A stretch of 60,164 nucleotides of DNA, the filler included, from Hausera hauseri (taxonomy: Eukaryota): assembly GCA_046269625.1 (NCBI GenBank). It is 10 parts of 10 records of this genome, joined end to end, with 100 filler letters (N's around TTAATTAATTAA, not from the genome) between each part and the next. Parts side by side here need not be neighbours in the genome. Positions count along the whole stretch, not along the records: positions 1 to 5,499 come from JBJURY010241405.1; 9 more parts are not named here. One strand, given 5' to 3'. Positions 1-44,650 of the stretch are shown piece after piece. The position numbers were made by a program, and so were the translations under genes. The notes beneath the pieces were generated by a model, which did not search any database, was not told where the DNA came from, and worked only from the letters and a program-made list of their open reading frames with translations. How positions within the stretch are numbered: the stretch's first letter is position 1; each line of letters starts with the position of its first letter.

Positions 1-1934
1 GGAAAAAGGATATGCGTCATTTTAGGGGTATAGTGCGCCACCGGGGACACGGTCGCAAACGAAATCCCTGCGTTGTAAAGGTTGATCTGCCCAATTGGGA
101 TGGTATCAGAGACATTGGATCTGGATATTACCCTGAACATTTGATCGGTTAGTTTGGAGAACGGTAACTCATTTCCTGTTGTTCGCATATTAGCTGGTTT
201 AGCAAATGGTCTTTTAGGTTTCAGTACCTTGTTCGTAGGCTCAACGAGTAAATAACTAAATTTGTGATACTTAATTGCATTAAGTATACCTAGGGATATT
301 GGAAGTAGTGATTGGGGTACTCTTTTACAAAGTATAACAAAATAGAAAAGTAAGAAATTATCCGACCTTTTTTTACATCCTAAGTCCAGAGTGTTTGTAG
401 AGCCTGGGGTCATTGTATTTATTCGTTCGAAGTCAGTATGCGAATGTCGTTGACGTTTTTGCCGTTCATCTTTTGTTTTAGCGAAATTGGTATCCACAGA
501 ATTGCCTCGAGCTTTCAAATACAAGTCCGGTCTGTAACGCGATTCGCTCCTAACGTTATTTACTTTATACTGGTTGTCTGGGAATTCTGTGTGGCGATAT
601 ACTGAAGATCCTTCGGTTCGTTTTTTTGCCAGTAGTATACTTACAAGGTACGTTATAAGATCTTTCCTGTGTTTCCAATCTTTGAGTATGGAAGACACTG
701 TTTTGCTCATGGAATCACTGGGTGCAATATAAATACCTTTGAAAACTATTAACAATGTTTCCCATTTTTTTCGTTCAAGCCGTGTAGCCTCTCCGACAGG
801 TCTTACGATATTTTTTGTTTTTTTAATACTTTCGATTAAAATATCTTTTTTAAGTATTGAGAGATAATATTTTACGATGTACGTGTCCAGAAATTCTGAT
901 TCCACGGCACTGGCTAATTTATGTCCATCTAAGTTGCAGACCAATCCATCGTTTATTTTTCTTTTTCTGCGAGCCGCTTTCAGTTCAGCAATTTTCTTAG
1001 ATGTATTGACACCGTCATTAATAGATCGTTCAACCTCAGACGTGACGTCATGCATATTGCCACGGTCAACAATTGTTGTAATAAGATTCTCCTTACCATC
1101 TTGATCAAAAATGACGATAATCACCTTACCGAATTCCTCCGTACGTACATTTTTAATATATCCAACTTCTTGTGAAGGAGCGTTAAATTTCGGCAAAGGA
1201 GTTGCACCGGTGACTTTGCATCTTCGTCTAACGTCAAATTTACTCATCAATTTCACCACCATTATTCCGTATTTATTGGCATAATGCAGTGACAAATCCT
1301 CGACTTTACCACCAGTAACGATCACTTTGCACCCAGCGTCGGCAATTTCTTTCAATCTGTTCTCCATCAGATCTTCTTTACCTCGTGAGAATGACATGAG
1401 TTCATCGGCAGTTTGCAACAAGACCGTTCTTTTTGTTTCCGTTTGTAATTGGTCGAATGGACATGAATAAACCGCTACTTTGGATTTGCAAGAATTGGTG
1501 CATTCAGAACATTTCTTATTAGGCGAACTGTATGTAAGACACGTCGAACATTCATATTTATCGTCCGCATTTCGGAAAAATGCCTGACCATTAATTCGAC
1601 CTGCCAGAACGTCTAACGTTGCCGGATAGTTCCCAATGGTCACTTTGCACAGTTCGGAAATGATAATCCGGTAAAATTGCGATTCCAGAAACGGAAATTC
1701 TTTGGGGCTCTGACGAATAAGTTTTTCTTGGCCTTCCGGTAGACCATACGGCTCACTTCCTTGCGGTAATTTTCGCATAAGCGCACTTAACTCTTTGTCT
1801 CCATTTTCATACGACTCACCAGCCTTTCGGCACACTGTTGATAACACCTGGAACTTTATCGATAGACCTACGGTCTTGTTTATTTCCGTAAAATCGAACT
1901 GTTGAAACTCAGTGTTAAGCCCTCTGTGAGACAT
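1..1934 (-). CDS. Chimeric ORF of at least 644 codons, 3' end off-window: unknown N-terminal part + in-frame CCT8 fragment + unknown C-terminal part
   Basis: Manual translation from ATG at 1934 (in-frame TGA just upstream) to position 1 found no stop. Begins MSHRGLNTEFQQF; includes KYECSTCLTYSSPNKKCSEC then KVAVYSCPFDQLQTETK. Probably absent from the ORF track because it has no stop in the window. Confidence 0.6.
   Translation of the reverse strand, partial: MSHRGLNTEFQQFDFTEINKTVGLSIKFQVLSTVCRKAGESYENGDKELSALMRKLPQGSEPYGLPEGQEKLIRQSPKEFPFLESQFYRIIISELCKVTIGNYPATLDVLAGRINGQAFFRNADDKYECSTCLTYSSPNKKCSECTNSCKSKVAVYSCPFDQLQTETKRTVLLQTADELMSFSRGKEDLMENRLKEIADAGCKVIVTGGKVEDLSLHYANKYGIMVVKLMSKFDVRRRCKVTGATPLPKFNAPSQEVGYIKNVRTEEFGKVIIVIFDQDGKENLITTIVDRGNMHDVTSEVERSINDGVNTSKKIAELKAARRKRKINDGLVCNLDGHKLASAVESEFLDTYIVKYYLSILKKDILIESIKKTKNIVRPVGEATRLERKKWETLLIVFKGIYIAPSDSMSKTVSSILKDWKHRKDLITYLVSILLAKKRTEGSSVYRHTEFPDNQYKVNNVRSESRYRPDLYLKARGNSVDTNFAKTKDERQKRQRHSHTDFERINTMTPGSTNTLDLGCKKRSDNFLLFYFVILCKRVPQSLLPISLGILNAIKYHKFSYLLVEPTNKVLKPKRPFAKPANMRTTGNELPFSKLTDQMFRVISRSNVSDTIPIGQINLYNAGISFATVSPVAHYTPKMTHILF
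867..1481 (-). pseudogene. CCT8: Chaperonin CCT theta (TCP-1 theta) fragment, intronless, with internal deletion
   Basis: KVAVYSCPFD..TETK.TVLL.TADELMSFSRG, VIVTGGKVEDLSLHYANKYGIMVVKLMSKFDVRR, EVERSINDGVNT, then a jump to FLDTYIVKY. These match diagnostic CCT8 motifs. Confidence 0.9.
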
Positions 1935-2144
1935 AACATTTAAAATTCATTGATAAGTCCTTTTCATTACATCAAGAACAAAAAACTCCCTTTGGATTCC
2001 AACACGAGTATTACGAAAGATTTACCCAACACTGCTATTGTGTTCAAGTTTCACCTTGAATTTCAACGAAACAAATTGAACGTTTATGATTGGTTTCAGA
2101 CATTGAATATTGGTTTACCCTGAGGTCAAAAATTTGAGCCTTCA

Positions 2145-2800
2145 ATGAAGGACACCAAATGGTTTATTCGAAGTTTCGTTAGGCCGAATTTGCGTTCGGA
2201 AGTGCGACAAAAGGCGACAAAAAATTAACCAAGGACATAATTGATTTGATTAATTCGAAATTCCGTGGACAGAATAGAATTGTTTACCGTTTGTCACGGA
2301 AGGAGTATATTCAAGTGGCACAGGAATTGAACAAAGCTTGTTTGAAAGCAAAATCATATTATGCCTGTATGGTTGATAGTGCACGAGTAAAAGTTTAACA
2401 AATGTGGATAAACGAGCAAGATTGCAAAATAGTCTGCGCTACAATTGCATCTGGCATGGGTACTGATAAAGCGGATGTGAGATTCGTTATCCACTACTCG
2501 ATCCCGACATCTGTTGAGGGATATTACCAGGAAACAGGTCGTGCTGGACGAGATGGACTTCCGGCTGTTTGGGTGTTGTACTATTACTGCCAGGATGTTA
2601 TACGAATGCAGCGCACGATTGATAGAGATCAAACCGGAAATTGTGAAACGAAACACCAACACGAAATACAGTTGTATAAAATGGCGTCATTCTGTGAGAA
2701 TGCGTTAGACTGTTGACGAAATCACCTTTTAAGTCATTTCGGTGAACATTTTGACAAAGCGCTTTGTGGGGTGGTCCGAAACTGCGAATGTAAGTCGATT
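2145..2800 (+). pseudogene. BLM: RecQ helicase (BLM-like) HelicC + RQC fragment with stops and frameshifts
   Basis: [76 protein letters not shown]. Confidence 0.85.
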
Positions 2801-2845
2801 GACGATGTATTTATATTTTCTGTAAACGATATCAGTAGATCAATT

Positions 2846-2962
2846 TGTTGGCACGTTTATGAGTTAGTCCAAAAGTCAGATAGGACGTACGATAAAGCCG
2901 TAAAATGTTATCTGAGAGCATTGAAAATAGATAAAGATAAAATTCAGGTATTGCCTGATTTG
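2846..2962 (+). pseudogene. NAA15: NatA auxiliary subunit (TPR) fragment of about 39 codons, fused to the RecQ fragment
   Basis: CWHVYELVQKSDRTYDKAVKCYLRALKIDKDKIQVLPDL versus NAA15 [39 protein letters not shown]. Confidence 0.85.
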
Positions 2963-5499
2963 AGGGAAACTCGGTCATCCTGCAATTTGGGGCCCGCCGC
3001 GCCGAGGCGGAGGACCCGACCGTTAACCCTGCGCCGGTCGGTCAGACGGCGCCTTCCGCGTCGGCCGCACAGCACGTCTCAGGCACTCTACTTCCACCTC
3101 TATTTCCCTTTTCTTCAATAATACACACATTTACACACAGTACATCACATTTACATATTGCAACTCTTCGAACCTTCATTTCTTTCTTACTTAACTCTTC
3201 CCATATTTACCTCACCCATAACGGCGCTATCATACCTTTTACCGGAACCCTATCATCTTTCTCAAGCCACACTTGACTCCACATACATCTCCGTATCCAT
3301 GGTGGCACGAACTCTTCGCCAACCATTGACACTACGGATAAAACCACCACAAAACCAAAATCTGTCATATTATTTCAAAAATCCACTCCTAATCCTGCTA
3401 GCAACTTCCCACTCATTACCTCTTCCGCTCCTTTCCCTTACTGCACCGAATTTTTCATCGGCAACCAAGGCTCCAGCAAAACGTGGTTGCAATTCCATAA
3501 GCTATGGCTACAGGCAAATAACATCACTGACTCTTTAACTAGAGCACATAATCTTCTCTTTCTCCCTAATAATATCAAAACTCGAATTCACAACATCATC
3601 GAAATCTTTGAACTTCCAGACCCATATTCCCAACTCTCCAACGCAGTTCTTAAGATCAGAGAACCTTCCATGGACACGATCATACAGCGTTTCTTCCACG
3701 ACAATGTTATAGGCACCCAACGGCCATCAGAATTCTTACGCACCTCTTTAGCACATCTACATACCCTCGGCGTCACTAAAGAACACAACCAGAACTACTG
3801 CGCCACTATTTCCTCAATGCACTACCTATCCAAATCCGGGCCCTACTTACCGTGATTGGAGACTCCACCGCTTGAGAAATTGGCCGACTTAGCCGATAGG
3901 ACACACGACGTCCTACACGTAAATTTTCCACCAGTTGTTTTAGCAACAGTTGCCGCTAACGATATTCAAACAAATAACATGTCTATAGAACAACAGCTTA
4001 ATCAGCTACGTGCTGAAAATATTGCACTACACGCAACAATCAACAATATCAATAATAAACTAAGCGAACTCACCCTGTCCCGCCGGAGGGATTTTGTCGC
4101 TGATCGCGTCCGTTCTGCGTCTAGAAACCGCTCACCATTGCCTGCGCGTTCGTTGATCTGCTATTACCACAGCAGATTTAACACTAATGCTCAGAAGTGC
4201 TGCCTAGGGTGCAAATTTTACAACAAGAGTTTTTTCTCGGACACCGTTGTTTAAATCTATCATGCAAGGTACAAAAATCAGGCTCGTAAATGCATTCCAG
4301 GCTGCACTTTCAAATCAAATACGAACGACGGACGTACTACCTTTCCTTCTAATAGTCGTCCTAATTCACCCTTTCAAAAAAACTAAGTTCGCCGCCAGAA
4401 GTCACGGCAAATTCTTGCAAAGGCACTACTTCACTTTCTGAACGCCGACACGTCTCTTTTGCTGTCTTTACTCTAAAGGCTGCAATCACTGCTCCTACAA
4501 CGCAATCTGTTGATTTTCTCATCGATTCAGGTGCAGCGATTTCTTTATTACCGCAAACCTTTCCTGTACAAAATTCTCCATTTAGAATTAAGCCCTTATA
4601 CACTACTTCAGGCCAACCGCTGCACATTTCTGGCATGGTTAAATTATCTTTCACCTTACCAAATTTTCTTTTACCTTTCCACTGAACGTTCACAGTCTCT
4701 AACGTCCAGACGGCAATTCTAGGATCCGACTTTCTATCGCATTATAATTTATTAGTTGACTGCAGTCAGCGATGTTTGAGGAACGGCACCACTGGCAACA
4801 TTTCCCAGCATGTCCATAGCATTTCGACTACCGCGCAGTCGACAGGAACGCGGAGATCAATCCTAAAAAACCAATGAATAACTTCAATTTTCACAACAAT
4901 AATTCAATTCGTAAATTGTTAAATAATAATATTGATAGTCGATTGAGGTTCGACGTCGATAATTGTGGTACTGCCACCAACGTCAATTCATTCGACGAAA
5001 TCACTTCACCCAACACCATTTTCAATTCGACCATCTTACACCAAATACCACTCGACTGCTCATCGCCAAACAACTCAAAAATTGCATCCGCTACTACTCA
5101 AGCCGTTTCACGATTTCCACCAAATCTCTCACAGTTACCTACAACTTTACAGCAATTCGTCAACACATCATGTCCACGCATACTTAAAAAAACCGTACGT
5201 TTACTCCCGCAAACAGTACTTTACACCACATAGTTACACAACATCAACGCCCAATACGCCAAAAGGTACGGTCTCTGTCACTTCGCCGTAGACAGGCTGT
5301 AGAAGCCGAATTTCTTGAGCTAGAACGTTCCGGCATAGTACGCCGTTCCAAATATCCTTGATCATCACATTTACACGTTGTACAAAAAAGGACGGTACTT
5401 TTAGACCATGCGGTGACTATCAACAGCTGAACAACTTGACTATCATGGATGCGTACCCTTTACCACTCATCAAGGATATCTTGCATCGTCTTAATTCAA
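2961..5499 (+). mobile_element. Degraded CsRn1-like Ty3/Gypsy retrotransposon: putative 5' LTR about 2961-3299, gag, protease, start of RT; cut by contig end
   Basis: Gag with IGTQRPSEFLR and CHCC finger CYYHSRFNTNAQKCCLGC plus a second degraded finger. Protease FLIDSGAAISLLP at about 4514. RT start [24 protein letters not shown]-rich TG-starting block at 2961; CA followed by TGGTGGCA at 3298-3307. Confidence 0.9.
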
Positions 5500-5599
5500 N
5501 NNNNNNNNNNNNNNNNNNNNNNNNNNNNNNNNNNNNNNNNNNNTTAATTAATTAANNNNNNNNNNNNNNNNNNNNNNNNNNNNNNNNNNNNNNNNNNNN
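5500..5599. other. Artificial contig linker N44-TTAATTAATTAA-N44; the same linker is at 10272, 17389, 22234, 31540, 38830, 43703, 47920 and 53675
   Basis: Identical 100-bp spacer with stops in all six frames, repeated 9 times. Confidence 0.98.
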
Positions 5600-10271: not shown

Positions 10272-10809
10272 NNNNNNNNNNNNNNNNNNNNNNNNNNNNN
10301 NNNNNNNNNNNNNNNTTAATTAATTAANNNNNNNNNNNNNNNNNNNNNNNNNNNNNNNNNNNNNNNNNNNNACGCTTTCGACGTTTTACCTTATCGCGCC
10401 AGAATACAGCTATGTGTACCGTCGTCCGAATTTTACAACATATTTATCTCTTTGCGCGGTGGACCGCACTCAGCAAATTAACAGGACGTATTTGATAGGT
10501 GTAGCTGTTGCTCTTATTTATTTGTAGAGAAAGGTTTCTGTAAAGACATGTGTGTCAGTATTTATGGCTTTATTTTCATTTCGTTATTGCATATGAGCGA
10601 AATGCGAACTTATTCATTTGGCTGTTCTCAAAGACATTGTTGTGTATGTAAACCTTATCTACTGTGCTTATAACACGAAAAGAAGTTGTTTCATTAAAAA
10701 GTGCCATCCAGATCCTCACAAATGTTTAATAGACTTTAGTTATGCAAGATTTAAAAATAATTGATTATATAGTTAATAAATCTATAATTGTTGTTCAGTT
10801 TGATCTTTT

Positions 10810-13800
10810 ATGTTTGATGATGGAAATGTACAGCATACCTCAGAAACTACAATGGTGTCAGAAAAATGGAATTACGCATTTTTTTCAAAAGAAAGAAACC
10901 GAATCAACTGAGGAGTTACTTGCATCCTTGGCTTATCCTACCCAGAAAACTGTGAAGCAACAGGACACAATTTTAAATCAATTTGAGGTTAAAGCACTAA
11001 AGACAAAGTTTTCAATACACGGAAAATCCGAACCACCTGTTAAACGAGCTAAAATTGATACCGATGTTAGTTCTGTGCCCATAAAACGTTCTGCAAAGAC
11101 TTCTGTTGATTTGGAAAAATTGAATATGTCATAGAGGACGCTTATGATCAAAGCGTAACGTTTAATCAAAAAGGTACGGAACCATTACCAACAACAAAAC
11201 CTCAAGTTGATACGAAGAAATCCGTTGATAATGCACAAGTAGTTACCGAAAAAGAAATGTCTACTGATAAAAGGTCAATTGATACGGAATCCTTTAATAT
11301 GGATGTTGATTTCAGCGATGCGTTCAGTGATTCTGCATTCAAAGTAGTAGAAGAAGCAGATGATAGCCCATTGTTTGTCAGCCTTACTGAACTTAATGTT
11401 ACGTTCTCCGTTAAAGAAACAGCAAAATTCGATTCAGACAATTGCGTTTTTTGGATCGATGCATACGAAGATTACAAAATTCCCGGTTCTGCGTTTCTGT
11501 TCGGTAAAATTGGAAACCAAAATGAGCAGAAATATTCAAATTGTGCCATTTGCATTTCAACTCTTGAACGACGCGCGTATCTTTTGATTAAGTCCGGTTT
11601 CAAGAAATTCGCTGTTTACAATGAATTGAAGGATTTATTCTCTAAACATAGAATTGAAAAGTCCCGTGCAAAATGCGTAAGAAAAAAGTGTACCGACGTA
11701 CCCGATGAGGCCGACTACATGGTCGTCCAATACAACGCGAAATTTCATGCGTTCCTAGCCAATTTAACAGGCAAAACATATTCTGGAGTTTTTGGGATGC
11801 AAACATCTTGTTTAGAGAATTTTCTTCTGTATCATAGACTAAAGATGTCATGTTGGTTATCATTAGATAACTTGATACCATCCGAAAGACCGTTCAGTAA
11901 TATCAAATTAAATTATGAAGTGGATACCGCTAAAGGTATACGACAAGTTGAAGGACGATACACCAATCCGCCAGTTACTGTTTTGTCATTGAATCTAAAA
12001 ACTGTCGTGAATGAAAAAGAATTGTTAATGAAATTATTTGTACCGTTTGTGCCTATAATAATGAGGTGTTCATGGAAAAACCACCTCCAAAAGAAAAGCG
12101 CAAAGATTACTTTGCAATTATTTGTCCACCAAAGGATGCTGCGTTGCCTTATGACATTCGACAAAAGGTTAACGACTGGGGTGATAAGTTTAAAGGAAAA
12201 GTTATAATACAACAGAATGAAAGAGCTTTGATCAACAATTTCTTGGCAAAATTACAAACAGTTGATCCAGACGTTATTGTTGGTGATTACCTTTTTGGGT
12301 ATCTTTTCAATATGATTATTAACAGATGCCATGAACTTAATATCGCTACGTGGGATAAATTTGGGCGATTAAAAAGGAAAATACCACTTCTGAAATTCAG
12401 TAGTGGAGGCAAATGGCTAGAACTCATTGTAATCGCGGGAAAATTGATCTGTGATGTGTCGACCAGTGCACAAGAATTGATTAAATGCCGTAGTTACGAA
12501 CTGATTGAATTGGTTAAGGAATTGCTTCCAGCAGATGTGCATCGTTTCGTTGCGGATTCTATAACAGATGTACCATTGATGTTTCTAACGTCATCAGGTG
12601 TTTATCAAATAATAAAAAAACATTGGAAGAGACTATTCTCAATATTCATTTAATGCATTATCTTTAAGTACTACCTTTGGCTTTGCAAATCATAACGATT
12701 TGTGGTAATGTGATGGCCCGTACACTTTTTGGAGGACGTTTCCAAAGAAGTGATTATCTTCTCCTGCATGCCTTTAACGAGGCCGAATTCATTAATCCAG
12801 ATGTACCGGGTCAAGTTGGTCAAAAACCAGTGCGGAATTCGATGATGGAAAAATACCAGAATTGTCACGTCGTAAGGCTAAATATACCGATGATCTTGTT
12901 CTGGAACCAAAGACGGGATTTCATAATAATTTCGTTCTTTTGATGGACTTTAACCCATTGTATCCATCGATTATTCTTGAATACATTATCTGCTTTACAA
13001 AGTTGGATCGGCAAAAGTATTTCACGACTGATGACACTGAATTGATAGCTGAGAAGACGAGTGAGCTTATGGAACTTCCAACTGAAATAAAAAAACTTGT
13101 AGAATCCCAAAAGCAAGTAAAAAATCTGTTGAGAGAACCCAACTTGAGTCCGAAAAAACAAATGCAATATGATTTTTGTCAAAAAGCTCTAAAGATTACC
13201 GCGAACAGTTTGTATGGCTGTTTGGGATTTGAACATTCCCGTTTTCAGGCAAAACAATTGGGTGCATTGATTACGTGTGAAGGTCAAGATATTCTGCAAC
13301 GTACGAAACATCTTGTTGAATCTTGTGCCATTAATTTAAATAGTATAACTGGCCGATCAGCAATAGAAATTAAGCTTCTTTTATTTAAGAAAAAGAAATA
13401 CGCAGCATTGGCTGTGATTAGAAAAGATCCCTCGTCGGAAAAATTGATAACAAACAAGAATTAAAAGGTCTTGATATAGTTCGAAGAGACTGGTGCAAAT
13501 TGGCCATTAAAGTTGGCAGACGAGTTGTCTTGATGCTTCTGAAACGTGAGAGGGACCTAGATAATTTACTAGATCATATATACAATTATCTGAAATCAGT
13601 CGCTGCAGACATGACGAAAAACAAACTTGAATAGGATAATTACATTATTACAAAGTCATTAAGTCATAGTCCTGAGGAATATGAAGATGCATTAAGTTTG
13701 CCGCACGTGCAAGTAGCTTTAAGGATTAACGAAACGGGGTCTGTGAAATTGTATAAAGCTAATGGCATTGTGGAATACATAATCTGCAGTAATAGGTCAA

Positions 13801-14790
13801 CAAATCCACACAGCAAACGTGGGTATAGTCCCAAAAAATTTACATATAATAAATTACAGGTTGGATAATGTGGAAATCAAATGGGTGCCAAGTTCTTGGA
13901 AGTGATATCCGACGAACACGGATTAAGTGTCGATGGATTTTACAAAGGCGACAGTGATTTACAACTGGAGAGAATTAATGTGTATTATAACGAGGTTACC
14001 GGCGGAAGATTAGTTCCCAGAACGATCCTCGCCGATTTGGAATCACGCATAATAGATTCTGTCAAATGTAGACCATATGGTAGTTTATTCCGACCTGACA
14101 ATTTTGCTTACGGCCATACTGGTGCCGGAAATAATTAGGCCAAAGGACATTACACCTTCGGAGCCGAACTGATAGATTCTGTCTTGGAATTAGTCAGAAA
14201 AGAATCCGAGGCCTGTGAATGTTTGCAAGGCTTTCAAGTCGTACATTCACTTGGTGGTAACAGTAGTGTTGTATCTGGTGTGAACAAATTCGTTAATTGC
14301 AAACAACTGGAAATACATTGTCCGGAATGTAAAAGACGATTCTAATTGACGAATCCTGTCGATAGATTCTCACATTATAAGCGTCTAAAAAACATTCGCA
14401 ATAAAGAGATACAGTTGAAGGAAACCATCATAATGAACAAGATAATGACTGAGCAACGGCGGCTAATTCGGGCGTATTACAATTCAACTGTGTGTAACGA
14501 ATATGACTGAAAATACCAGTCTGGAGCTGTCCCAGGTACATTATCGACCGTATTAAAGAAACCCATTGACCGAAATGGCCATACAATCCGTCCACATTGC
14601 GGTGACGGAGAGACGAAACCTTTGGTATCGGCTGCTCAACTGTACAAACAACTGTGTTTCTATGAAAATTTATTTCCAACAAAAGAAATGGACAATTCCA
14701 CTCTATACTCTCCGGTGAAACAGATACACGATGAAGTGAGATTTGTTATTGTGTAATATTCGTCTGGCAAACATTTTTTTAATTTGCTTC
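10810..14790 (+). pseudogene. POLA1: DNA polymerase alpha catalytic subunit; intronless, frameshifted, internally deleted, interrupted by a tubulin fragment
   Basis: [110 protein letters not shown]-terminal CPEC and LYKQLCFYENLF. Confidence 0.93.
13854..14258 (+). pseudogene. TUBB: Beta-tubulin N-terminal fragment (about codons 7-142) embedded in the POLA1 copy
   Basis: [96 protein letters not shown]. Confidence 0.95.
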
Positions 14791-14809
14791 TTATTAGCGA
14801 TTCTTAACA

Positions 14810-17388
14810 TGTCCGCCGTTGACACAACATCGTCCCTTTTAAACTTAGCCCTCCATTGCGGTTGTCATTTACGGCCCATTTACTTAGATACTTCAGATTT
14901 TTGTTCACATACGTGCAACAAAACTCTTGAGTTCCGAGTACATCATAGCGTGACCGACTGTCCAACCGTCTGTCCAATGTCAGTGGGTCCTACACTACGG
15001 TACATTGCGCCACCCCTAGGGCCACCACTGACACTCTCCTTATTCTTCATACATAATTGCCATTTACGCACACTCAATACAACGTATTTTATAGGCGCAC
15101 ATTACTTGTACAATTATGTGCTACAATTTGCTCATTTTCCTTATTTTTATCTCACAACAACTTACCTGTAATTAATGTCAATTTTCGCGACATTTTTATT
15201 CCTTTATCCCATTATGTCATTATTCACATACACATTCGCATTCGTGGTGGCATGGAATCTTCATCCACCATTGGCACTACTGACAAAACTGCTTCTAAAC
15301 CATCACCTTTCACTTTTCATCAAAAATCAACGACCATAATCACGCCGTCTACTTTCACCACTTATACACCTTCCATCCCGCCATCCAAACACTTCTCAGA
15401 GCATAGAATACTTTATTGATCACGAAAAGTCCAGCAAAACCTGGCTTAACTTTCACAAACTCTGGTTGGAGTCTAACAACGTTACTGATCCATCTGCCAA
15501 AGCCCATAGTTTACTTTGCCTTTTACCAAACACAGTAAAGACTTCTCTCCACAATATTTTAGACATATTTCAACAATCCGACCCGTACATCCATCTCTAT
15601 AATGCAGTTTTGAAACTCACGTAACCTTCTATGGATTCTGTAATCCATATATTCTTCAACGATAACGCTATGGGCACACAAAAACCATCAGATTTTCTCA
15701 GAACCTCTCTCGCTCAACTGCAAACAGTCGGCGTTACAAAACAAAACAATTCCGATCTCTTACGACATTACTTTTTAAACGCATTACCGATTTAGATCAG
15801 AGCTCTGCTTACCATCATCAAGAAATCGACGGAACTGGATAAATTAACCGAACTTGCAGACCAAACGTACGAAATCTTACACCTGAACACACAACCTATC
15901 ATTTCTTCAGCACTCGCAGCAAACGACAACACATTAGAATATCAAATACAACAGTTGTGGGCCGAAAACGCAGCCATACATAATACGATAAACAATATCA
16001 ATGATAGATTAAATGAAATCTCTTTGTCTCAACGAAAGAGTTCCACCTACGATCGCAAACGCTCTGTATCCAGAGGTAGGTCACCGTCTCCTGCACGATC
16101 GCTGATCTGTTTCTACCATGATAGGTTTGCTCGTAAAGCACAAAAATGTCATCTTAGGTGTCGCTTTTACACCCAAAAGTATAAAGTTAACAATCCTATT
16201 TGCATCTACCACGCAAAATGTAAGAGTGAGGCACATAAGTGTATTCCCGGTTGTACCTTTAGAAGTAGAACACAACATACGAACGTCGGACGCACTATCT
16301 TGTCTTCTAACATCCACTACATAGATTTCCTCGTCGATTCAGGTGCAGCTATTTCCTTACTGCCGCTCACTTTTCCAACTCAATGTACTTCATCCAACTA
16401 TAAACCTCTATTTACAGCTTCCGGACAACCGCTACATGTTTCCGGTTCTTGTAGACTTTCCTTTACCCTTCCAAAATTTACTTTAATGTTTCACTGGACA
16501 TTTACCGTTGCAAACGTCCAGACAGCCATTTTAGGATCCGACATTCTTTCGCACTATAATCTGCTTGTCGATTGCAAACAACATTTCTTAACAAGTGGTT
16601 GCGATAAGGATCTATTCGATCACATCGATACCATTTCGTCTGTCGTGCGGGTGAACGCAAGTTGAAAACCGATATTAAAAAAACCGTTGCACAAACCATT
16701 TTTTACAATCATGGCAATTTGTTTTATAAATTACTGAAGAACAATATTACTGACGATTGGGATTTGCACGGTGATGAAAGTGATTCCGTTACCACCGCCA
16801 ATTCCTTAGATAAAACTACCAGCTACAATATAATATTCAATACTACCATCCTGCATCGAATACCACTTCATTTTGAATCACCAAATAACGTCCAAATTGC
16901 AACAGTTACCGATGAAACCACCTCGCTCCCACCAAACTTTTCACAATTACCTGCATGTCTGCAGCAATTTATTAACGCATCTTGTTCTAGAATTATTAAA
17001 AAAGACAGGTCTTTTACTCCAGCAAATACCACTTTTCACCACATTGTGACACAACATCAAAGACCTACCCGCCAAAAAGTGCGTCCATTATCTCATCGTA
17101 GACAAGGAGTTGAAGCTGAATTTCTAGAACTTGAACGTTCGTACATTGTACGTCGCTCCAAATCCTCATGGTCGTTACCATTACATGTCGTGCAAAAGAA
17201 GGACGGAACTTTTCGACCATGTAGTAATTATCGTCAGTTGAATACTTTGACAATAATGGATGCGTACCCGCTACAACTCATTAAGGAGATCTTACACTGC
17301 CTTAATCAATCACAATTTATTCTACCATTGATTTATCCAAAGCCTACCACCAAATTCCTGTGGCACCTGAAGATATCGAAAAACAGCC
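14810..17388 (+). mobile_element. Degraded CsRn1-like Ty3/Gypsy retrotransposon (leader/LTR, gag, PR, RT start), paralogous to 2961-5499
   Basis: MGTQKPSDFLR; two CHCC fingers (CFYHDRFARKAQKCHLRC, CIYHAKCKSEAHKCIPGC); FLVDSGAAISLLP; [23 protein letters not shown]; TGGTGGCA at 15245-15252. Confidence 0.9.
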
Positions 17389-17626: not shown

Positions 17627-18154
17627 TGTTGGAACCCGACTGACTAGTTGGGTAATCCGGGAAGCATGAAAAGTTATAAAGGAAGGGATGTAAATAGTGT
17701 ATATATAGATGTAATTGCATATATGTATATAGGCATGTATATTTGATTGCACATGTTGTGTTTAAATATTAGTTGTTGGGGGTTGGAATTGTAAAGTGTG
17801 TGTGATGTAAAAACAAAACATGGAAAATATTGAAAGGATGAACCCTGCCGGGGTTTGCGTAATGAGAATGAATGATTGTATGTTTGATAAATTCAGCACG
17901 CATGTTTCGGGCCAAAATTTTAAAGGTGGAGAGAATCCCCCGAAGAGCAGCACTCCGAAAACAATGGCTAAGTATTGTGAGAAAATTAATCTAAATGTTT
18001 TTTATATGATTATATATTGTTTAAGGGGGGTTTGGGATTGTCAGAGATTTTAAAAGGGAAAACACATGATATCAAAACGAGTTGGACATTTAAATATTAT
18101 GTAAATCCAACAAAAACGAATTTATTATTTAAATGTTGTGATATTGTTCCACCA
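17627..18154 (+). repeat. BEL/Pao LTR (528 bp)
   Basis: TGTTGGAAC...GTTCCACCA (8/9 inverted terminal match), with PPT upstream and PBS 2 nt downstream. Confidence 0.8.
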
Positions 18155-18156
18155 AA

Positions 18157-18174
18157 TGGTAGCAGAGCGTGGTT
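18157..18174 (+). promoter_or_regulatory. Primer-binding site complementary to initiator tRNA-Met
   Basis: TGGTAGCAGAGCGTGGTT matches the 3' end of animal tRNA-iMet (...CTCTGCTACCA). Confidence 0.85.
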
Positions 18175-18424
18175 GCTGCTCTGCACCCTGATCTGCAAGC
18201 AGCGGCCACGGCTCCTTGTCTTGTTGAAGATTCCTTCTGACCTCCTCGTATTCGGATCTTCCTCCTTGAACTGTTTAAAGAGTTTTTATTCGCTTGCGGC
18301 AAAAAACCAATCCGTGAACCCGGCTAGTCAAATAAAGATAAACAGATTGGAAAATAGTTCGGGTTCTGGGTTGGTGATGCTGCCTAGGGAGCCTGAGGCA
18401 GAGTGCCTTTCGAATTCATACACA

Positions 18425-21400
18425 ATGGCCACGGTTCTAGAAAGAACCTGGCTAAATAATAAATTGAGGAAAAGGAGAGAAGGTAATTATGTGGAAGGAT
18501 TTAAAGGTGTGAAGAACGATATTGGCGAGGAAGAGAAGGCTATAATAGAAAAGGAGCAAAACTCATCGCAACTCCAAAATCACGCTTCCAAAATCGTTAA
18601 TGAGAAGAAGGACTCTACGACAACGAATAGAGATGTTAAACAAGTGTATGTAAGAATAAGAGAGGGTAAGCTAGTGCAGATCAACTTAGAGAAGGTTAAA
18701 TCTTTAAGCGAGTTGCTTACCGAAGTCGAAATAAGATCAAAAATATCCGTGAGTTCATTGAAGTTATTCTATCAGGGTAAGAGGATAACGACTGATAAGG
18801 ATGTGGAAGATTTAACCCATGGAACTACTGTGTACATAGTCGTTGGCCTTAAGGGAGGAAGCAAACATGCCAGCAAGAGTTACGAAAAGAAGCTTAGGGC
18901 GAGTTCAGAGAACGCCAAACGAAGAACGAAAGAATTCGAAACAAGGTTTTTAATGAAGGATAAATTGAAATCTAGGCTAGAAAGTATCCACGGAAGGATA
19001 TATGTCGCCAATTCTGAAGAAAAAATTCGGAAAACCTACGATGAATTTTGCGCAGTCTATGAGGAAACTGTCTCGGAGATACTGGAGCTCCAAGTCATGG
19101 CGAAACAACAGAGCAGAACAGATGAACTGGAAGATCTGATTCAGGACAGGGAAGTGCTGAGTCAGCTGAATGCTGATGTAGTGGCAGGGTTGCGAGGTAT
19201 AGCCGCTAATCGAAGCGAACAGGAGAGAAGTCGTCAAGAGATCGCGGAGGCTACAGTGAATAATAATTTATGTCCTCGCCTGAGCCGAATCGAATTGCCG
19301 AAATTTAGTGGACATATTGCTGATTACGAGAAATGGAGGCAAACCTTTGAAGTTTGCGTACACCGAGCTCCAATATCCATAGTAGAGAAGCAGTTAAAGT
19401 TAGAAGATTGTCTCAGTGGAGATGCTAAGAAATTAGTGGCGAATTTTGGCATCAGTGAGACGTCTTACGCGGCAATTCTACAAAAGCTTGAGAGGTTTTA
19501 TGGTGGAGATCAAAGAAATTTCGCGGCGTTAATCGATGAAATCCGAAAGTTCGAAAAGGTGAGTGTAAATAATATAAAACAAATAGATAGTTTAGTTTCA
19601 CTATTGGAAGCTGTTACGGTACGACTGAGAATCATGAACAAGGGAAACGACTTAGATAGTGTACTACTATATAAGATCATTTTGGAGAAGTTACCAGAAG
19701 CCTTGATAAGCCAGTGGGAAAGGCACCGACGGAGTTGTCAAAAGGAAGAGAATATCAGTGAGTTGAAATATTGGCTAGAAGAAGAAGCGGATATACGCCG
19801 CGTATCTGCTGAATCCGCTCATGGTATAGATGTCCTAGAAAGAAAGGAACCCAGAAGTATAAGGCATGATGATTATCGACACATCCAAAGTAGTGACTAC
19901 CGTCAAAAGCATGGTTCAGAAGAAAAGAAGGTAAACTACCACCATAACCATTTTACAGAAGTCAAAGAGAAGGCGGCAACCGCAAAAGGCGTATGTTGGG
20001 CGTTTGAGAAGGGAAATTGCACTTTCGGAAAAGAGTGTAAATATTCCCATGGAAAAAAGGAAGAGAAGAACGAAAATAAGAGCAAAATGTGTAAATATTA
20101 CCAGCAGGGGAACTGCAGAAATGGAGACAAATGTCGGTTTTCGCATAGGAGAGAGAGGTCAGTGGGACGAATTAGTAATCGTGAAGGTACGACAGAGAAC
20201 AACAGTCAAGAGAAGTTGGAAGAACCATCACAAAATAGAAATGAAAGAAACGTGAAAGAGTCAGACGAGCTTGGGAGCGATCAAAAGAAGAGTTACGTAA
20301 CTGAAAGACATAACCAAAAAGAAAAAAATGAGGTGTCGTTGAGGACGATCCCAGTGATTGTGCGTAATGGGGAATATGAGGAGAAGATCAATGTATTGTT
20401 AGATGATGCTAGCACGGACAGCTACATCAGCACTTCACTGGCAGGAAGGTTACGATTAGAACAAAAACCAGAGTCGATTTCGGTAGAGGTCTTAGGTGGC
20501 GAAAAGAGAAAGAAGAGTGCAGCAAGAGTTGAGTTTCATTTAAGCAATCTGAATAGAGAACTAGAAGTGAAGGTATCAGCACTGACAATCGAAAATGTGG
20601 TAGGTAATTTAAATGCTATAAATTGGAGCATATCTAGAAGCAGATGGAACCATCTAAGAGAGGTACCCTTCCCAACAATAGTAAAATCAGGGAAAATCGA
20701 AGGGTTGATCGGAGTAAATTACAGTCAACTTCATCGAGCTATCAAAGAAGTATCCGGGAAGGAAGGGGAGCCTATAGCTCGACTAACACCGCTAGGATGG
20801 ACCTGTATCGGACCGACATCTACAAAAAGACCATTTCAGAAGCGATCGAACTTTATTAGATGTTTCTTCTCGAGTGGAGAAGAGTTAAAGGATGATTTAG
20901 AGCGGTTGTGGAGGTTAGAGGACATGTTAGAAAAGAACCAACCGTGGACAGAAGACGAAGAGAGAATAATGGAAAAATCCAAGGCTGAGATGCGATACGC
21001 GAACAACAAGTACGAAGTCAAAATCCCATGGAAGAGAAATCCACAGGACTTGCCTGATAATGATCGGATCGCTAAAAGACGGTTGTCGCTGTTGGAGAAT
21101 AAATTGGGAAAAGATTTGGAATTAAAGGAGGGCTATCAAAATCAAATAGTCGAACATGAGAAAAAAGGGTATATTAAAAATGTGACAAACGAACTGAAAG
21201 ACAAGGCGACTGGGTGGCTTCTACCACATTTTCCGGTTATAAGAAGAAGTGCGGAAACCACAAAGATTAGAATAGTATTTGACGCAGCGTCAAAAAGTAT
21301 GGGTATTAGTCTAAATGATCTGATCCACCAAGGTCCCAAATTGCAATTAGACCTGGTAGATATATTGATAAGATTCAGGAAGTATGAAATTGCCATGGTA

Positions 21401-22233
21401 TGCGATATCACAGAGATGTTCCTACAAATTGGAGTAGCACCAGAGGATCGGAAATACTTAAGATTTCTCTGGAAAGAAGAAGAATGTGTGAAAGTTTATG
21501 AGTTTCAACGATTGGTGTTTGGGTTGAATGCAGCTCCATATTTAGCGCAATTAGTAAGCCGAGTAAACGCGGAGAAACACGTAAAAGATATACCCAAAGC
21601 AGCATGGGTGGCTACAAACGCCACTTATATGGATGATAGTTTGGTATCTGTTAGGACAGAAGAAAAAGCGGTAAAGATGTATCAAGACTTAAAGTGGTTA
21701 TGGAGTCAGGCTGGGATGAATGCAAGGAAATGGGTATCAAATTCTGAGAAGTTACGCGAAATCATACCGGAAGATGAAAAGTCGGCGTGCTATCAGATCG
21801 TAGAGGAGGAGACAAAGACCAAAACTCTAGGCATGAGGTGGAATGCCAACAGTGATGTGTTCTCATTCGATAGAAGGGTCCAGTCAGAAGAGATAACTAC
21901 AAAAAGGAAGTTTTTGAGCTCGGTAGCAAAAATATTTGACCCATTAGGATTCCTTAGCAGTTACCTAATGAAAGGAAAATTAATCATTCAAGAGATGTGG
22001 ATGCACGGTGCAGATTGGGATGAACAGCTTCCAGACTACTTAATCAAACGAGCGAAAGAATGGGTAGCAGAACAACAGGATTTGGATCAGATTCAAATAA
22101 AACGTGTATTAATATCAGACCAGTCCCAATATGAGGTACATATATTCTGCGATGCATCTAAAGATGCCTATGGAGCGGTCGCTTATTTGGTCACCACAGG
22201 AGACAAGAGAATTAGCAACATAATAGTGGCGAA
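18425..22233 (+). CDS. Intact BEL/Pao Gag-Pol polyprotein (3' cut by contig end): Ubl - DUF1759 capsid - 2x CCCH - protease - RT - RNase H
   Basis: Ubl 18638-18859 ending GLKGG; IELPKFSG..YEKWRQTF; CCCH fingers 19994-20146; LLDDASTDSYI; TPLGWT; LPHFPV..TTKIRIVFDAAS; YMDD 21626-21637; IFDPLG; HIFCDAS..AYGAVAY. Start is probably ATG 18377 or 18425. Confidence 0.93.
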
Positions 22234-22333: not shown

Positions 22334-25300
22334 CTGGAGATGGAAGCGAATTGTGCGATAAAGACGAAGTGAATAGTGGATTTGCAGGCGATGACGGTGA
22401 AGTAGTTGGTCAAAGATCAGTATATGATGACGCACATGAAGAGAACTGATTGTAAAGCTAGCGTGATTGCTGCGAAGGATTAAAATCATCAAGGAAATTA
22501 TATGATGGCTGGAGGGGAGAGAGGTTAGAGTTTGGATTCGAAACAGTGCCGTTATCCTGGTCATTGTCAACGAAAATGCTGCTTTAATATTAGAAATGTG
22601 TATATTTTGAGGTCTGTACTTAGGTAAAATAGTAGCGCTGTGCGAAGAAAGGTTGAGTAGTTTGTAAGGGCCAACGTATTGAGGCCGAAAACCAAAAGGT
22701 GATGGATCGTTCAGAAATACAAACTTGGCTGAGTATAAGTCCTCTGGAATATAAAGTTTGTCTTTATTTATAAGACGACAAAAGGCGTTTAAGTTTACAT
22801 TTACAAAATGGGACTCTGCCGCACGAATAACGTCATCTGATGAACTTTTATCAAAATTGGAGAGCTTAAATAGGGCACGAATTGGTGTCCCAAAGAGAGC
22901 CTCAGCTGGAGAACTGCAGGTGGGGGTGAATGACGTGTTGCGCCAACCGAGTAAAACAAGAGGAAGAGTTGAGGTTCAGTTATGATTGTTGTTTGCCAGG
23001 ATTTTTAAGGAAATCTTCGTGGTGAGGTGAAATCTCTCAAGAAGACAATTTGCTTGGAGATGGTACGGCGTCATATGAAAATGGGTCATCCCCAAGTACC
23101 TTACCAGAGATTTAAAAAAATCAGCGAGAAGCGCGATTCATCATCAATAAAATATATTGATAGCCGTTGTTGGTTGGTAAAGGACCCACAAAATCCAAAT
23201 GAACGGTGTCAAAGCGAGACGTGCAAGGGAAGTGGTTAAATGGTGGTTTGAGGTGTTTATGAACCTTATATTGTTGACATGCTACACATCCCTTAACCCA
23301 GACCTGTACATCTGTACGTATAATCGGCCATACAGCATGACGTTGCAGTAGACGGAATGTGGCTTTTGAACCCGGATGATGAAGAGAGTGAAAGTGAGTG
23401 AAAGCCGTTTTTTGTAGCGATGGAGCAAGGATGATTTTTTATTAGTCGAGTTGGATATGTCATAGGCGATTCCATCGATGATTTCAACCGATTTAAAAGC
23501 TTGAAAAATGTCAAATGATGACTGATTGCTTCTCAGAACTTCAGAGGAGAAAATTGGCTGAACTGTAATTGAGTTGACCGACCGCGACAAAAATATGTAA
23601 ACTAAATTTTCGGTGCATGAAATATATTTCATAAAAAAAGTAAATGTCGACGGGTATGACATCTGTCGTTCTTGACTGGGTGATGGTTGTTTCAACGTCA
23701 TGATATGAATTAGAGTCTTGTGGTCGGTTTAAATGATAAATTGACGTGATAGAAGCAAATGCTTTAAATGCTTTACCGCTAAAACTATGGCTAGGAGTTC
23801 ACGATCAAATGTTGAGTATCGGCTTTTTGGTTGCGTGAGCTTTCTGGAGTAGAATTCTAATGGCTCGTCAACACCATTGTATATTTAGTGTAATATCGCA
23901 CCAGTAGCTGTGGTTGAGACATCGGTTGTTAATATTAGTTCCGCGTTTGGTTTTGTAAAAGCCAGGATTTCAACGGTTTTCAGACCTTCACGAAGGCGAT
24001 CAAATTGATTTACTAGATTGGAAGTCCAGTGGATTAATTGCCTTTTCTTCCCAGATGAGAGATGTGCGAAAGGTGCCTTTAGTTCAGAGACGTGTGGCAC
24101 GTATTTGTGTACGAAATGCATTATCCCTAGAAAACTCCTCATATAGGTAGTAGTAGTTGGTAAGGTCACATTTTTTAATTGTTGTAAGCGATTAGGCTGG
24201 GGCGAATGACCTTGGGGAGTAATTATGTGACTTAAGAAGTTGACGCATTTCTGGAAGAAATTGCATTTGGCGAAATTGATTTGTAGGTTGCTTTGATACA
24301 ATATTTGAAAAATAATTCTAATGTGATCATGATGTTGTTTGATCGAGGTGGAAGTGACTAATATGTCATCTATGTATTGGTGAGCAAAGTCAAGACCTGA
24401 GAGAACGGTGTCAATGTGGCGTTGAAAAGTCTGCGATGCTCTACGTAGGCCGAAGTGCATGAAGATGTATTCATAAAGGCCAAATGGTGTGATTATAGCA
24501 GTCTTTGGAATATCATCAGGTGCAACAGGAATTTGATGGTAGGCCTTATGCAGATCAATGGTAGAGTAGGTATTGGTATTATTGAGGCTATGAAGAATAT
24601 CCTTAATGAGTTGTAGTGGATAGGCATGTGTAATAGTTAGGTTGTTTAATTTCAGATAGTCGCCACATGGCCTGTAAGTACCATCTTTTTTACTACTGCA
24701 TGAAGAGGACAGGCCCATGGAAAATTCGATGTCCGAACGATGCTAGACATTTCCAGTTCATTAAATTCCTGTTCCACAGCCTTACGTCTGCGTGGCGACA
24801 AGGGTCTGACCTTTTGTTTGATAGGCCTCTGATGCGCCATTATTATATGGTGATACGTTGTGGATGGAGGCTTGAAGTTGACGTCCCTTTTGACTATGCG
24901 AAAGCAAGACGTTGTGACGTATGATTTAAGATTGGAGTCTAGCAATAAGAATGATTGAGGCATATCATTAGAAAGAACAGCTGCGGTGATTGACGAAAAG
25001 CAAGTGGCATCGCTACTATCATCACCTAATTTGGATTTCTATCTTAGAATAGATTTATGATTGTTGTTCATAACTGAAGAAATACCGACTTTATCGGAAG
25101 CTTTTTTATAAATGATGAAGCGTTCAACATATTTACAAATGCGTACAATGAACTGCTCGCTAGATTGTCTGCGAGATGCATGTTTGGAATTGCGATCGAG
25201 TTCCTGCTTAGAAGACAACCGTATTTTCAATCGACCAATAGATCATGTGCGGCAAGAAAATCTGAGCCTATTATGGGAGGTTTAATATTGGCCACGTGAA

Positions 25301-27960
25301 ACTTCCAGACAAACGTATCTGGCAAGTTGGCGAAAGTAAAAGTCAGTTCCATGGTTCCTGCAACATGCAACGGTTGTCCACTGGCAGTGGAAAGCAGAGG
25401 ACAGGAAATTATAGTGGATGTAGGGGTGAAGGACAACGGACGGAGTAAGAAGGCAGCTCTTGTATCTATTAGGAATTCAATATGTGAGGTATCTCTGCAT
25501 AACAGTGTAGCTTTCAACAGAAAGATTGCAGAGGCGATGTTGAAACGTCTAGAAGATTGAGCGATATTGCCTGCGCCAGAATGTGCCGTAAAATCTGGAG
25601 CATTATTAGTTTTTTGAAAGGTTTGGAGACAAGGAAGAAGAGGAAGGAAAAGGAGAAAATTTATCTTCATAGTGTTTACAACCAGACACACATGAACTGG
25701 CCTGTGACTGATATTTGTTGTGGTATATGCAAATGAGGTTGCTTACAACGTATCGCATGCTATAGAATCGACAGCCTAAGAAGCATTTCCTTGCATCCTT
25801 TCAAAAATGCATGTGATGGAAGCAAGGTATACGTCCACCAGGTGACATAGATCGAGTTGAGTGTCTTGAAGTGCTTTGCTCCCTTGAAGTTCTGGTGTTA
25901 CTTCGTCGAGGCCCATTAATATTATTTAATTAAACGGTGATGACTGAAATTGACTGTTGTAACGTTTCAAATTGTTGTTGCATCAATTGCAGTTGTTGAG
26001 AGGAAGACCTAGTGTCTATATTTTAGGTATGTGCGGTTACAGCCACAATTGGGAGAGACTTTTTGGTGTGGAGAATCTCAAAGGACTTGTCGGCCACTAT
26101 GGCCAATCTTTCAATAGCAGTGGACTCGTCGACAACGGTGAGCAAAGCTCCGATTGAAGTAGGCAAATATCGTTTGAGCTACACACGAATCCACGTAAAC
26201 CGTATCGATCATCGTCCATTTTATTTGATTCATCCACCACAAGTTATCCACCAATGTCAGCAATTCGATTGTAAATGTTGCAGTACCGATTGTCCAGTTT
26301 TGTTAAGTAACCTGGTCGCAATTTTGGACCAAAATACAAAACATCCACATCACCGAAAAGGCCCATCCGTCCTTTGTGTTTCTTACTATTGTAACCAGCA
26401 ATAAAGATATTCAATGAAATTAGCGATATTAAGCAATATGCACAATATGACTGTCGAAGCAACTCTCGTAAATTTGATGGAAGTCGAACGTAATCATCTA
26501 ACTCTTCAATAATGCCATCAAAATCGGCTTTCGATTTACGACTAGAACTCATAATTGTTAAAGCTGAATCGTCGCCTGGACTAAAGTCCTCCGTAACTGG
26601 CAGTTGAAAAATATTGGATTCCAAATTTATTCAAATAAAATAGTAAAAAAATGGCGCAACAAATTCATTTGGTATTTTGGGCCGTTTGCAAGAAACATCA
26701 TTATTAGCCTCAAAAGATTCAACAGATAAAGATCTTTTACTTAATGATTTATCTAACGAATTGTTTCTATTAACGTCACCTGAGTTCACAGGAATAGGAC
26801 ATGAAGTCTTGGAAATTCATTGGACATCAACTTCGATAAATTACATCTAGCACTTGTTTTGAATTCCGCACTAATATTTAATGCACTGAAATCGCTTTCA
26901 TTGAAATTCTCGTTATCTTTGTCTATAATTCTGCATGTTGCATTTGGAGGTAGAGGAAACAATGACGAATGAGTGAAGAGAAACAGGCGGAAAATAGGGG
27001 CCCCACTATGGCCCCGACGCGACGGCAGCGGACGCCCGTCCGTGCCCAACCAAATGGGCCAAAATGTACCGGCCGCTGTAGACACCACAGCAAAGATGAC
27101 AAAAAATAACGGCGAATTAAATCTGCCTTATTGATAAGCGTTACTCCTAAAGCTCTAAGCTGCCGAATGGCCGTATGGAGAAAATCGGATGGTTTTTGGT
27201 TTCCTATCGCATGATCATTAAAGTATTTTCGTATAATGTGATCTATCGAAGGATCAGTGATATGGAGTACAGCCTCACAGAATATTTCATATAGTGTCGA
27301 TGATTGGAGCAGCTGGAAGATGTTACTGATCTGCTGCTTGATGATGGCAGGCAGAAGTATCAAAAGACTATTGGCTCGGACAAAGGAGTAGGTGATGTTG
27401 TTGGATTTTAGGTACTGTTGGTGGAATTGGAGCCATGGTTTCCTGGTGTTGTTTTTATCAAGAAAAAAATCCACACAAGGTTGATTTAGCGAGGCTCGTG
27501 TTTGTTGACAGTTTGGTACACAATAGACGTTGTGTGTATTTGTGGATTTATCATCTGAGAAAGGCTGATTTGAGTCCGATCCACCCCAAAGGCGAAAATT
27601 GAGCATGGGATTGATGACTGGACGTTCGTCGCATGCCAAAGACAGAAGGGAGCCGACAGGATGTACAGTGACACCTCGATGTGTGAAATAGAAGTTAGAA
27701 GTGTTGAGTGAGGAGGATAATGAGTTGTATAGGAGCTGCGCTGTGGCGTTGAGTGGAGCTCTAATGGTGTTAATGTGTTAATTATTGCTAAAGACCAGGA
27801 AGGCGAGTTGCTGCGACGTAATCCCAGGAGAATGTTGAAATATGGGGGGGGGCTTGGGCGGTTTCCTTCTGGGTTAAAGAGAGGTTCGAGCGTACAGCCG
27901 GGGAAGCAGTGGCAAATGATGGTTGAGATAAAGGAATATCCAAAGTTATTGAGCTTAAAA
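22334..27960 (-). mobile_element. Degraded near-complete CsRn1-like Ty3/Gypsy element (gag-PR-RT-RNase H-IN); gag split by a 922-bp insertion
   Basis: Gag IGNQKPSDFL (ORF 26923-27639) resumes at LPTSIGALL at about 26165. CHCC fingers about 25680-25825; FLIDTRAAF; RT KTAIITPFGLYEY..FGLRRASQTFQR..YIDD; RNase H LTTDVSTTATGA; integrase GPY at about 22670. Confidence 0.92.
26168..27089 (-). mobile_element. 922-bp insertion in gag: GC-rich LTR-like start + unidentified coding-like cargo, 5-bp TSD
   Basis: Flanked by GCAAA (26163-26167 and 27090-27094). Minus strand runs TGTGGT...ACGATA. Removing it and one TSD restores gag RRYFLSSLPTSIGALL. Confidence 0.7.
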
Positions 27961-28319
27961 AGTTTTCAAAATTAAAATTGGTGTTGGTCATTAAAATTTG
28001 TGAGCGCAGAAAATGGCCGCACTGGTGTGCGCAAACCAGTAAAAGGAACTTCGCCAACCTGTGCTTGAATGTCTGAATCCCGGATGTCGAATTCTGCCAC
28101 ATCTGAACTGTTCTACCCACTGGGTTATTCTTACTAATCAAATCGACGCCGGTCTCATCGACACCTCTCGAATGTTTGTTCTTTCTTTTGTCAAATACAT
28201 TGTTACCAAGTGACTTTGAGAGGATATTGTGAAGAATAGTAAGGAATTTTGAGCCTTTTAACTGATTCCTACTGCTCCAGAAATGGAGAATGCTGACAGT
28301 GAAGTAGCCACCTTTCTCC

Positions 28320-30640
<2,321 letters not shown>

Positions 30641-30665
30641 ATAAGTGTTCTTCCTCCTGTCGGTT

Positions 30666-44300: not shown

Positions 44301-44446
44301 AAGCTCGAAAAAAAATTTTTTCGAAAAAAATTTTCTATTAATACCATCAGATGCAAAATTCTAAAGTACACATTTTTCATTTTTCAAGATTTTCGAAAAA
44401 TTTCGAAATTTTCACTAAAAAATTTTCCCTGGAAAAATATTTTGGA

Positions 44447-44563: not shown

Positions 44564-44650
44564 ATTTCCCATATAAAGTATTGATTATCGATCCTGGGGG
44601 CCTCAAGATAGAAAATTTATATTGGCCCAGTGTCCTCCGTTCCCCCTACT

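Follow-up and report, generated by a model that had tools for sequence, protein, structure and literature searches.

A minus-strand reading frame free of stop codons runs from position 1946 to the edge of the window, the 60,164-nucleotide stretch of Hausera hauseri DNA analysed here, and covers 648 codons, or 644 when counted from the ATG at 1934. Is such a frame a new gene, or does it belong to something else? Chance is a poor explanation for its length: in 200 base shuffles of contig 1-5499 the longest stop-free frame reached 174 codons. An earlier note on this DNA had read it as a young or selected chimeric gene. Our analysis indicates that the 644-codon frame is probably the cargo of a Gypsy LTR retrotransposon, forming the front of a ubiquitin-Gag polyprotein. 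Of the former reading, the capture of fragments, the young age and selection for an open frame stand, whereas a free-standing host gene and selection on the amino acids do not.

The window consists of ten unrelated contigs, separated by nine identical artificial spacers, the first at 5500-5599 (44 N, a 12-base linker with stops in all frames, and 44 N). Consequently, the POLA1, NBEA and PC fragments once listed as neighbours of the frame lie on other contigs and are not its neighbours; only the BLM/Gypsy block shares its contig, and six-frame translation confirmed that the two lie head to head. The contig with the frame (C241405, window 1-5499) is a single piece. As it begins at window position 1, the direct extension proposed in the earlier note is blocked; upstream, however, an overlap with a second contig (L121) was found. 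An Rfam search of window 1-5499 gave no match.

A DNA search of the genome with the frame returned 47 matches, each covering part of it (the best 40 of 122 candidates were scored). Read along the minus strand, the frame is a patchwork of host gene pieces. Its first 22 codons with ATG 1934 (1869-1934) are an accidental antisense read beyond a breakpoint at 1868/1869. A fragment of an ankyrin and MYND-finger gene follows (aa 23-145, 1500-1868), which we take to be ANKMY2 by name. It ends within the first half of the MYND finger, and the C-x2-C-x9-C-x2-C motif described earlier is indeed present there, at aa 129-145 (1550-1500). Contig L102 matches 146 nt of this piece at 94% identity and then runs into a full zf-MYND domain (7e-10), and the upstream ankyrin-gene part of L121 matches a contig with ankyrin repeats (L239, 1.4e-15). 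A homolog search with aa 20-148 was blank. About nine codons of a coiled-coil gene are left at 1476-1505 (30 nt at 97% in L027); in L026 and L027 this fragment is long and continues beyond the relic.

The CCT8 segment, placed at aa ~151-355 by Pfam Cpn60_TCP1 and PDB matches, comes in two parts. Part 1 (aa 151-311, 1001-1483) is 90% identical to a parent-like gene (L009), and part 2 (868-1000) follows an in-frame skip of 228 nt relative to that gene, in agreement with the internal deletion claimed before. Next come about 20 codons of TRRAP/Tra1 (819-880; 82% to L036, whose frame at this piece matches Tra1_central at 2.8e-13) and, across an A-rich join at 811-824 that is in frame in this contig, about 33 codons (717-818) of what is presumably a TBC1D8/9-like gene. 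Pfam and homolog searches with the latter piece gave no match; compared with L036, 660 nt have been deleted from it in frame. The following ~215 codons (70-717) are old, unassigned cargo, present in at least 26 other element copies at 71-96% identity; for the L031 copy of this region no protein homolog was found among 1.84 billion. Positions 1-69 are a constant element leader, which lies directly ahead of a ubiquitin-like domain (best 40 of 166 genome candidates scored); the domain itself, its GG and Gag are beyond the contig end. In an Atlas search every match scored below 0.9. Two other origins were rejected: antisense coding for aa 407-644, as mismatches are flat over codon positions (363/415/381), and a Tudor gene for aa 373-406, as in other copies the Tudor piece sits further upstream.

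Where three junctions had been claimed, we counted six fragment joins and a private 12-nt deletion, none of which breaks the frame in this contig. At four of the six joins, as judged by eye, the two sides have words of 3-8 nt in common; the CCT8 part-1 join shows 8-nt near-identity and the TRRAP join a 7-nt shared word. The apparent intron of the parent-like CCT8 gene falls inside the deleted block, and no intron-bearing parent was found for the other pieces. Elsewhere, cargo is intron-free over 1,125 codons of dynein and 972 codons of neurobeachin, lengths that would fit an origin from mRNA.

The sequence beyond the window edge can be followed in sister copies. L017 is open for its whole length of 293 codons across the corresponding point, in L062 225 codons read through the GG motif into Gag, and the frame of L068 likewise reaches the ubiquitin-like domain and Gag. 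In L021, L022, L025 and L034, cargo, shared region, GG domain, CHCC-knuckle Gag, protease and reverse transcriptase (RT) all lie on one strand. The CHCC Gag motif was seen in L022, L024, L035 and the plus-strand element of contig 1-5499, and the order Gag, protease, RT, RNase H, integrase in L025 and window 22334-31539; the Pol domains matched were RVT_1, RT_RNaseH_2 and, weakly, rve_3.

GG-S is invariant in 12 of 12 rows before Gag, the rows having been chosen for a GG-like motif. An AlphaFold model of the preceding domain from the sister subfamily (11 sequences, L032 first) has a pLDDT of 78.5 and ubiquitin topology, and all matches listed by Foldseek for it were ubiquitin, ISG15, SUMO or NEDD8 (best E 4.7e-6, TM 0.76). 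Foldseek with the model led by L068, from the window's own subfamily, gave no match, Pfam and PDB profile searches with the 80-residue domain before GG did not call it ubiquitin, and its profile-profile score against ubiquitins was weak (E 0.027, probability 1.8%). On the strength of one matching model out of two, the domain ahead of Gag is predicted to have a ubiquitin fold.

ATG 1934 had been taken as the start of the frame. However, homology to L004, L026 and L121 ends at 1868, and L121 continues the frame upstream. Over its last 77 bases this contig is 100% identical to window 1868-1792, and it stays open through 799 codons in frame with the ORF, with a forkhead domain and the leading part of the ankyrin gene included. 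It adds 775 open codons from an ATG within a tRNA-Leu primer site, behind an LTR; ATG 1934 is therefore accidental. The ATG in L121 overlaps an 11-base site complementary to the 3' end of tRNA-Leu, for which a matching gene was found. The word spanning LTR end and primer site has 155 exact matches in the genome versus 2 for a control word, and homologs of the sequence before this ATG stop at one shared point, with unrelated flanks. At the other end of the element, L139 holds an integrase 84% identical to that of L025, then a purine tract, then an LTR related to the L121 leader. The element thus runs LTR, primer site, cargo, ubiquitin-like domain, Gag, Pol; for this exact copy the full layout is put together from separate contigs, with LTR, primer-binding site and polypurine tract seen on L121, L128 and L139. 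A single contig, window 10372-17388, carries a primer site at 10853, POLA1 cargo, GG, Gag and RT, and a beta-tubulin piece sits in frame with the POLA1 cargo (10733-17388, plus strand).

A result that goes against our reading comes from 32 primer-site loci, where few frames were open from this ATG and many were open one base off. In many of the loci L153-L182 the open frame begins in the LTR end and passes through the primer site with a one-base shift from the ATG; the one-base-off frames of other families apparently start in the LTR. Host pieces entered behind the primer sites of these loci include peptidase M16 and acyl-CoA oxidase (ATG frame), among others. A tRNA-Trp-type primer word is absent from the window. 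A reading of the 3' end of L025 as an LTR was dropped since no link was found. In L151:1-1000, an integrase tail and LTR head are followed by host-like sequence in place of the usual LTR body.

At position 1868 the contig of run X1 has a loose end matching the L121 branch. Its depth falls from about 90 along the ORF body to 6-13 past 1868, contig depth being a rough guide, which suggests that there are several near-identical copies and that the contig's own neighbour is a minor rearranged branch. From 1869 onward the plus strand gives the best reading, with 3 stops in 123 codons versus 7 and 7. Here, 1869-2985 is decayed cargo of a second element, made of an unassigned piece, BLM (RecQ; Helicase_C, RecQ_Zn_bind) and a piece that we take to be NAA15-like. 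The second element itself follows at 3130-5499 on the plus strand. It is broken by stops and comprises a ubiquitin-like segment, recognised by motif only and closing with GG at 3306, a Gag that carries CHCC knuckles, protease and the first part of RT. The contig with the frame holds one piece of a lineage that multiplied recently; this piece is truncated at its 5' end and joined head to head to another element.

Cargo differs among copies, while the same strand and the same frame are kept. Upstream of the constant leader, the Gag frame was the longest open of all six frames in 33 of 40 copies; when the three sense frames alone were compared, it was the longest in every one of 11 sequence groups (P 6e-6 at a chance of 1/3, 5e-4 at 1/2). 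Three of 43 anchors with less than 150 nt upstream were left out of this test, and by its design the roughly 15 codons beside the anchor do not vary and are in frame. The shared region was analysed in the only 27 matches of at least 250 nt. Among 130 variants common to at least three copies there were 0 stops (3-4% expected), and 30 breaks were private to single copies: of the 26 private indels, 23 cause a frameshift, and there are 7 private stops. Six breaks were shared, versus 13.3 expected on inner branches (P 0.02, all six counted as inner events); two of the six fit a clade, and most lie in slippery runs. Once inserted, copies decay by stops and frameshifts. The synonymous share was 39/130 (0.30) for shared and 77/299 (0.26) for private variants, with a neutral expectation of 0.23-0.27 (shared versus private, P 0.41). 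Long open mosaics of 925, 972, 799 and 509 codons occur elsewhere in the genome. Selection likely acts on the reading frame, not on the protein.

A mechanism can be proposed. In the particle, reverse transcriptase would switch templates onto co-packaged host mRNAs and thereby insert, swap or delete cargo, which would enter between primer site and ubiquitin-like domain. Ribosomes starting at the 5' ATG would have to translate the whole cargo before arriving at Gag. A stop, or a join that is out of frame, would deprive a copy of Gag; efficient particle formation would be limited to versions with the frame intact up to Gag, and broken copies would rarely found new lineages. Nonsense-mediated decay of the broken RNA would push in the same direction. 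Host deubiquitinases are predicted, by analogy, to cut after GG and free Gag from its cargo. Such a cut would give one constant Gag N-terminus whatever cargo precedes it, leaving the cargo amino acids free to drift. In cytopathic pestiviruses that have captured mRNA for ubiquitin or a ubiquitin-like protein, host hydrolases cut after the ubiquitin and free an authentic N-terminus, according to the part of the source available (PMC8310069). As described there, pestiviruses also carry cellular sequence in frame within a polyprotein, cleavage being a prediction in our case; they differ in being RNA viruses with one-off insertions, whereas here the ubiquitin-like domain is fixed and the captured sequence variable (PMC8310069).

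The frame is not open in all near-identical copies. In the X1 contig over 638-1391 (depth 92.6), two added bases in the A-run at 811-816 shift the frame; most near-identical copies in this sample are probably of that version. L020 and L036 are also out of frame at the join 811-824. Hence, either a broken version can multiply, presumably with help in trans, or the open state is the variant of one copy. None of the independent records listed confirms the window version at 811-816 or bridges 1868/1869. That the window is misassembled at this 2-nt site is a minority reading, which we nevertheless take seriously; an error limited to this site would leave the family-level result untouched.

Could the frame be kept for a reason other than translation into Gag? 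Open cargo might protect the RNA from nonsense-mediated decay, or template switching might be biased to join in phase, with Gag starting separately at a Met. An in-frame Met just ahead of the ubiquitin-like domain, possibly a second start, is found in 22 of 28 copies. The frameshifted versions in X1, L020 and L036 and the short shared words at joins agree with such an explanation, as does the finding, in the accessible text of Tan et al., that 14 of 17 young LTR retrocopies are in frame, possibly through youth alone (PMC5131818). A joining bias, however, cannot remove later stops and slips, yet these are depleted on inner branches; 11 of 11 groups in the Gag frame are unlikely even at a bias of 1/2; and in one subfamily the Met ahead of the ubiquitin-like domain is absent while the frame is open through. 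We therefore consider this explanation unlikely, and prefer selection for translation through the cargo into Gag.

An artefact of wider scope, in which the mosaic or its open state was built from collapsed repeats, has in its favour a highly fragmented assembly (909,086 contigs), the graph branch at 1868 and the 2-nt difference in X1. It is improbable, given that joins are bridged in independent runs (717, 868 and 1000 in X1, 868 and 1000 in X5, 1000 in X2), that paralogs share joins (at 1483 in L004, with 94% identity, and at 717 in L020) and that diverged copies share the layout. Runs X2-X5, which bear other organism codes, hold near-identical pieces at depth 2-8; these could be contamination within one campaign, or host or prey samples.

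The CCT8 segment matches Pfam Cpn60_TCP1 at 1.3e-33 and human CCT8 at 3.9e-54, its best matches being trematode proteins (61%). Of its 24 differences from the parent-like gene, 21 move off the commonest residue in 100 animal CCT8 proteins, several of them at invariant sites. The window lineage has 14 non-synonymous and 8 synonymous changes, the parent lineage 3 and 9, a contrast that is not significant (P 0.07). By the two signs of a functional CCT8, conserved residues are not kept and dN/dS is not well below 1. The earlier note had regarded a dN/dS near 1 and other copies with stops as speaking against a gene; we found the former for this segment and the latter among the paralogs, L004 having two stops. 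A domesticated chimeric host gene with a new function, comparable to Bs1, is thus the least probable reading: its long open frame, short end branch (0.018) and pairwise CCT8 dN/dS of 0.35-0.47 are what a gene might show, but the pairwise ratio mixes in purifying selection on the parent, the window lineage has changed as above and lost invariant residues, the MYND finger is halved, the contig has no real start or stop, and near-identical copies are frameshifted.

Cargo ahead of Gag has a parallel outside the Gypsy family. A search for the ubiquitin family found many copies in BEL/Pao elements that end in GG ahead of Gag (the best 150 of 847 candidates were scored, and 24 loci and 10 longer contigs were read). 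On the BEL/Pao contig C84435 (L222:1241-10000, plus strand, and L223), a 3,454-codon open frame first crosses host pieces of fn3, Ig, EGF and coiled-coil type and then reaches a ubiquitin that passes the Pfam cut-off, GG and a Pao Gag domain. Judged by this domain order, C84435 shares its architecture with the Gypsy family, to which its superfamily is unrelated. The ORF at window 17990-22231 (plus strand) is a Pao element with a weaker ubiquitin match. This region and window 55653-60164 (plus strand) are both BEL/Pao elements in which a ubiquitin-like domain and GG stand ahead of Gag; they also have CCCH fingers and are extended far at the N-terminus.

Template switching is established in LTR retroposition, as seen in the available portion of Tan et al. 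(2016, PMC5131818). Their retrocopies, so far as described there, resemble the present elements in having partial host mRNAs within LTR elements, short shared words at joins, several parents per chimera and further rounds of copying (PMC5131818). In contrast, their retrocopy replaces part of the element ORFs, giving a non-autonomous element, whereas here the cargo precedes a retained ubiquitin-like-Gag-Pol, shares the Gag frame and turns over between copies (PMC5131818). Maize Bs1, in the sections of the sources at hand, is likewise one LTR element with pieces of three host genes and a hybrid ORF (PMC13317346, PMC5131818); it stands as a lone example and is interpreted as a functional chimeric gene, unlike the many mosaics, drifting residues and ubiquitin-like spacer found here (PMC13317346). 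The CsRn1 clade of Ty3/Gypsy shares the Gag motif C-x2-H-x9-C-x3-C and a flatworm-like host, but its primer is tRNA-Trp, going by the accessible part of that report, instead of tRNA-Leu with two knuckles and an N-terminal ubiquitin-like domain plus cargo (PMC2582038). The planarian Burro Gypsy elements, as far as the available excerpt goes, also have a very long single ORF, host-like domains and a SUMO-like domain; they begin with Gag and carry their extra domains fixed and after it, whereas here variable mRNA scraps stand before Gag (PMC6431247). Literature searches for the ubiquitin-Gag-plus-cargo layout gave no match, in a coverage outside which most subscription papers and Repbase lie, so that novelty is unproven.

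A broader proposal, which we put forward tentatively and consider doubtful, is that Gypsy and BEL/Pao each evolved a ubiquitin-gated cargo bay in this animal. Kilobases of host mRNA scraps would be exchanged ahead of Gag, become random exon-shuffled polypeptides on translation and then be removed by cleavage; the element would remain autonomous, and the carriage of host sequence would itself be favoured. If so, one advantage of cargo might be that small RNAs silencing the element would also strike host genes, and the genome would run a standing screen of in-frame chimeric proteins. LTR gene capture is known as a rare, crippling accident; here it would be routine, with the element genes kept. 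The family would also offer a clean example in nature of selection on the frame alone, for which cleavage at a ubiquitin-like spacer would account, and a mass source of in-frame exon-shuffled ORFs. For annotation it carries a warning: long open chimeric ORFs in this genome would be element cargo, not new genes.

Several further observations concern other elements in this genome. On contig 22334-31539, the upstream cargo of the Gypsy element is neurobeachin-like, and a second host-like block (25800-27100, minus strand) interrupts its Gag. L220-L221, L224-L226 and window 48607-53718 (minus strand) are giant Gypsy elements resembling planarian Burro, with Gag, a ubiquitin/SUMO-like domain and an env-like fusion protein in one 3,000-codon frame; window 50119-51471 matches a viral fusion glycoprotein family at 8e-34. 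Two of three frames of 3,000 codons are Burro-like and not of the cargo type. A broken, intron-free pyruvate carboxylase lies on its own contig at 44603-47243 (minus strand), beside three 43-nt tandem copies (44440-44567). Finally, inverted repeat pairs at 35447-37876 (185 nt, 86%) and 39356-39974 (131 nt, 87%) are probably the ends of DNA transposons.
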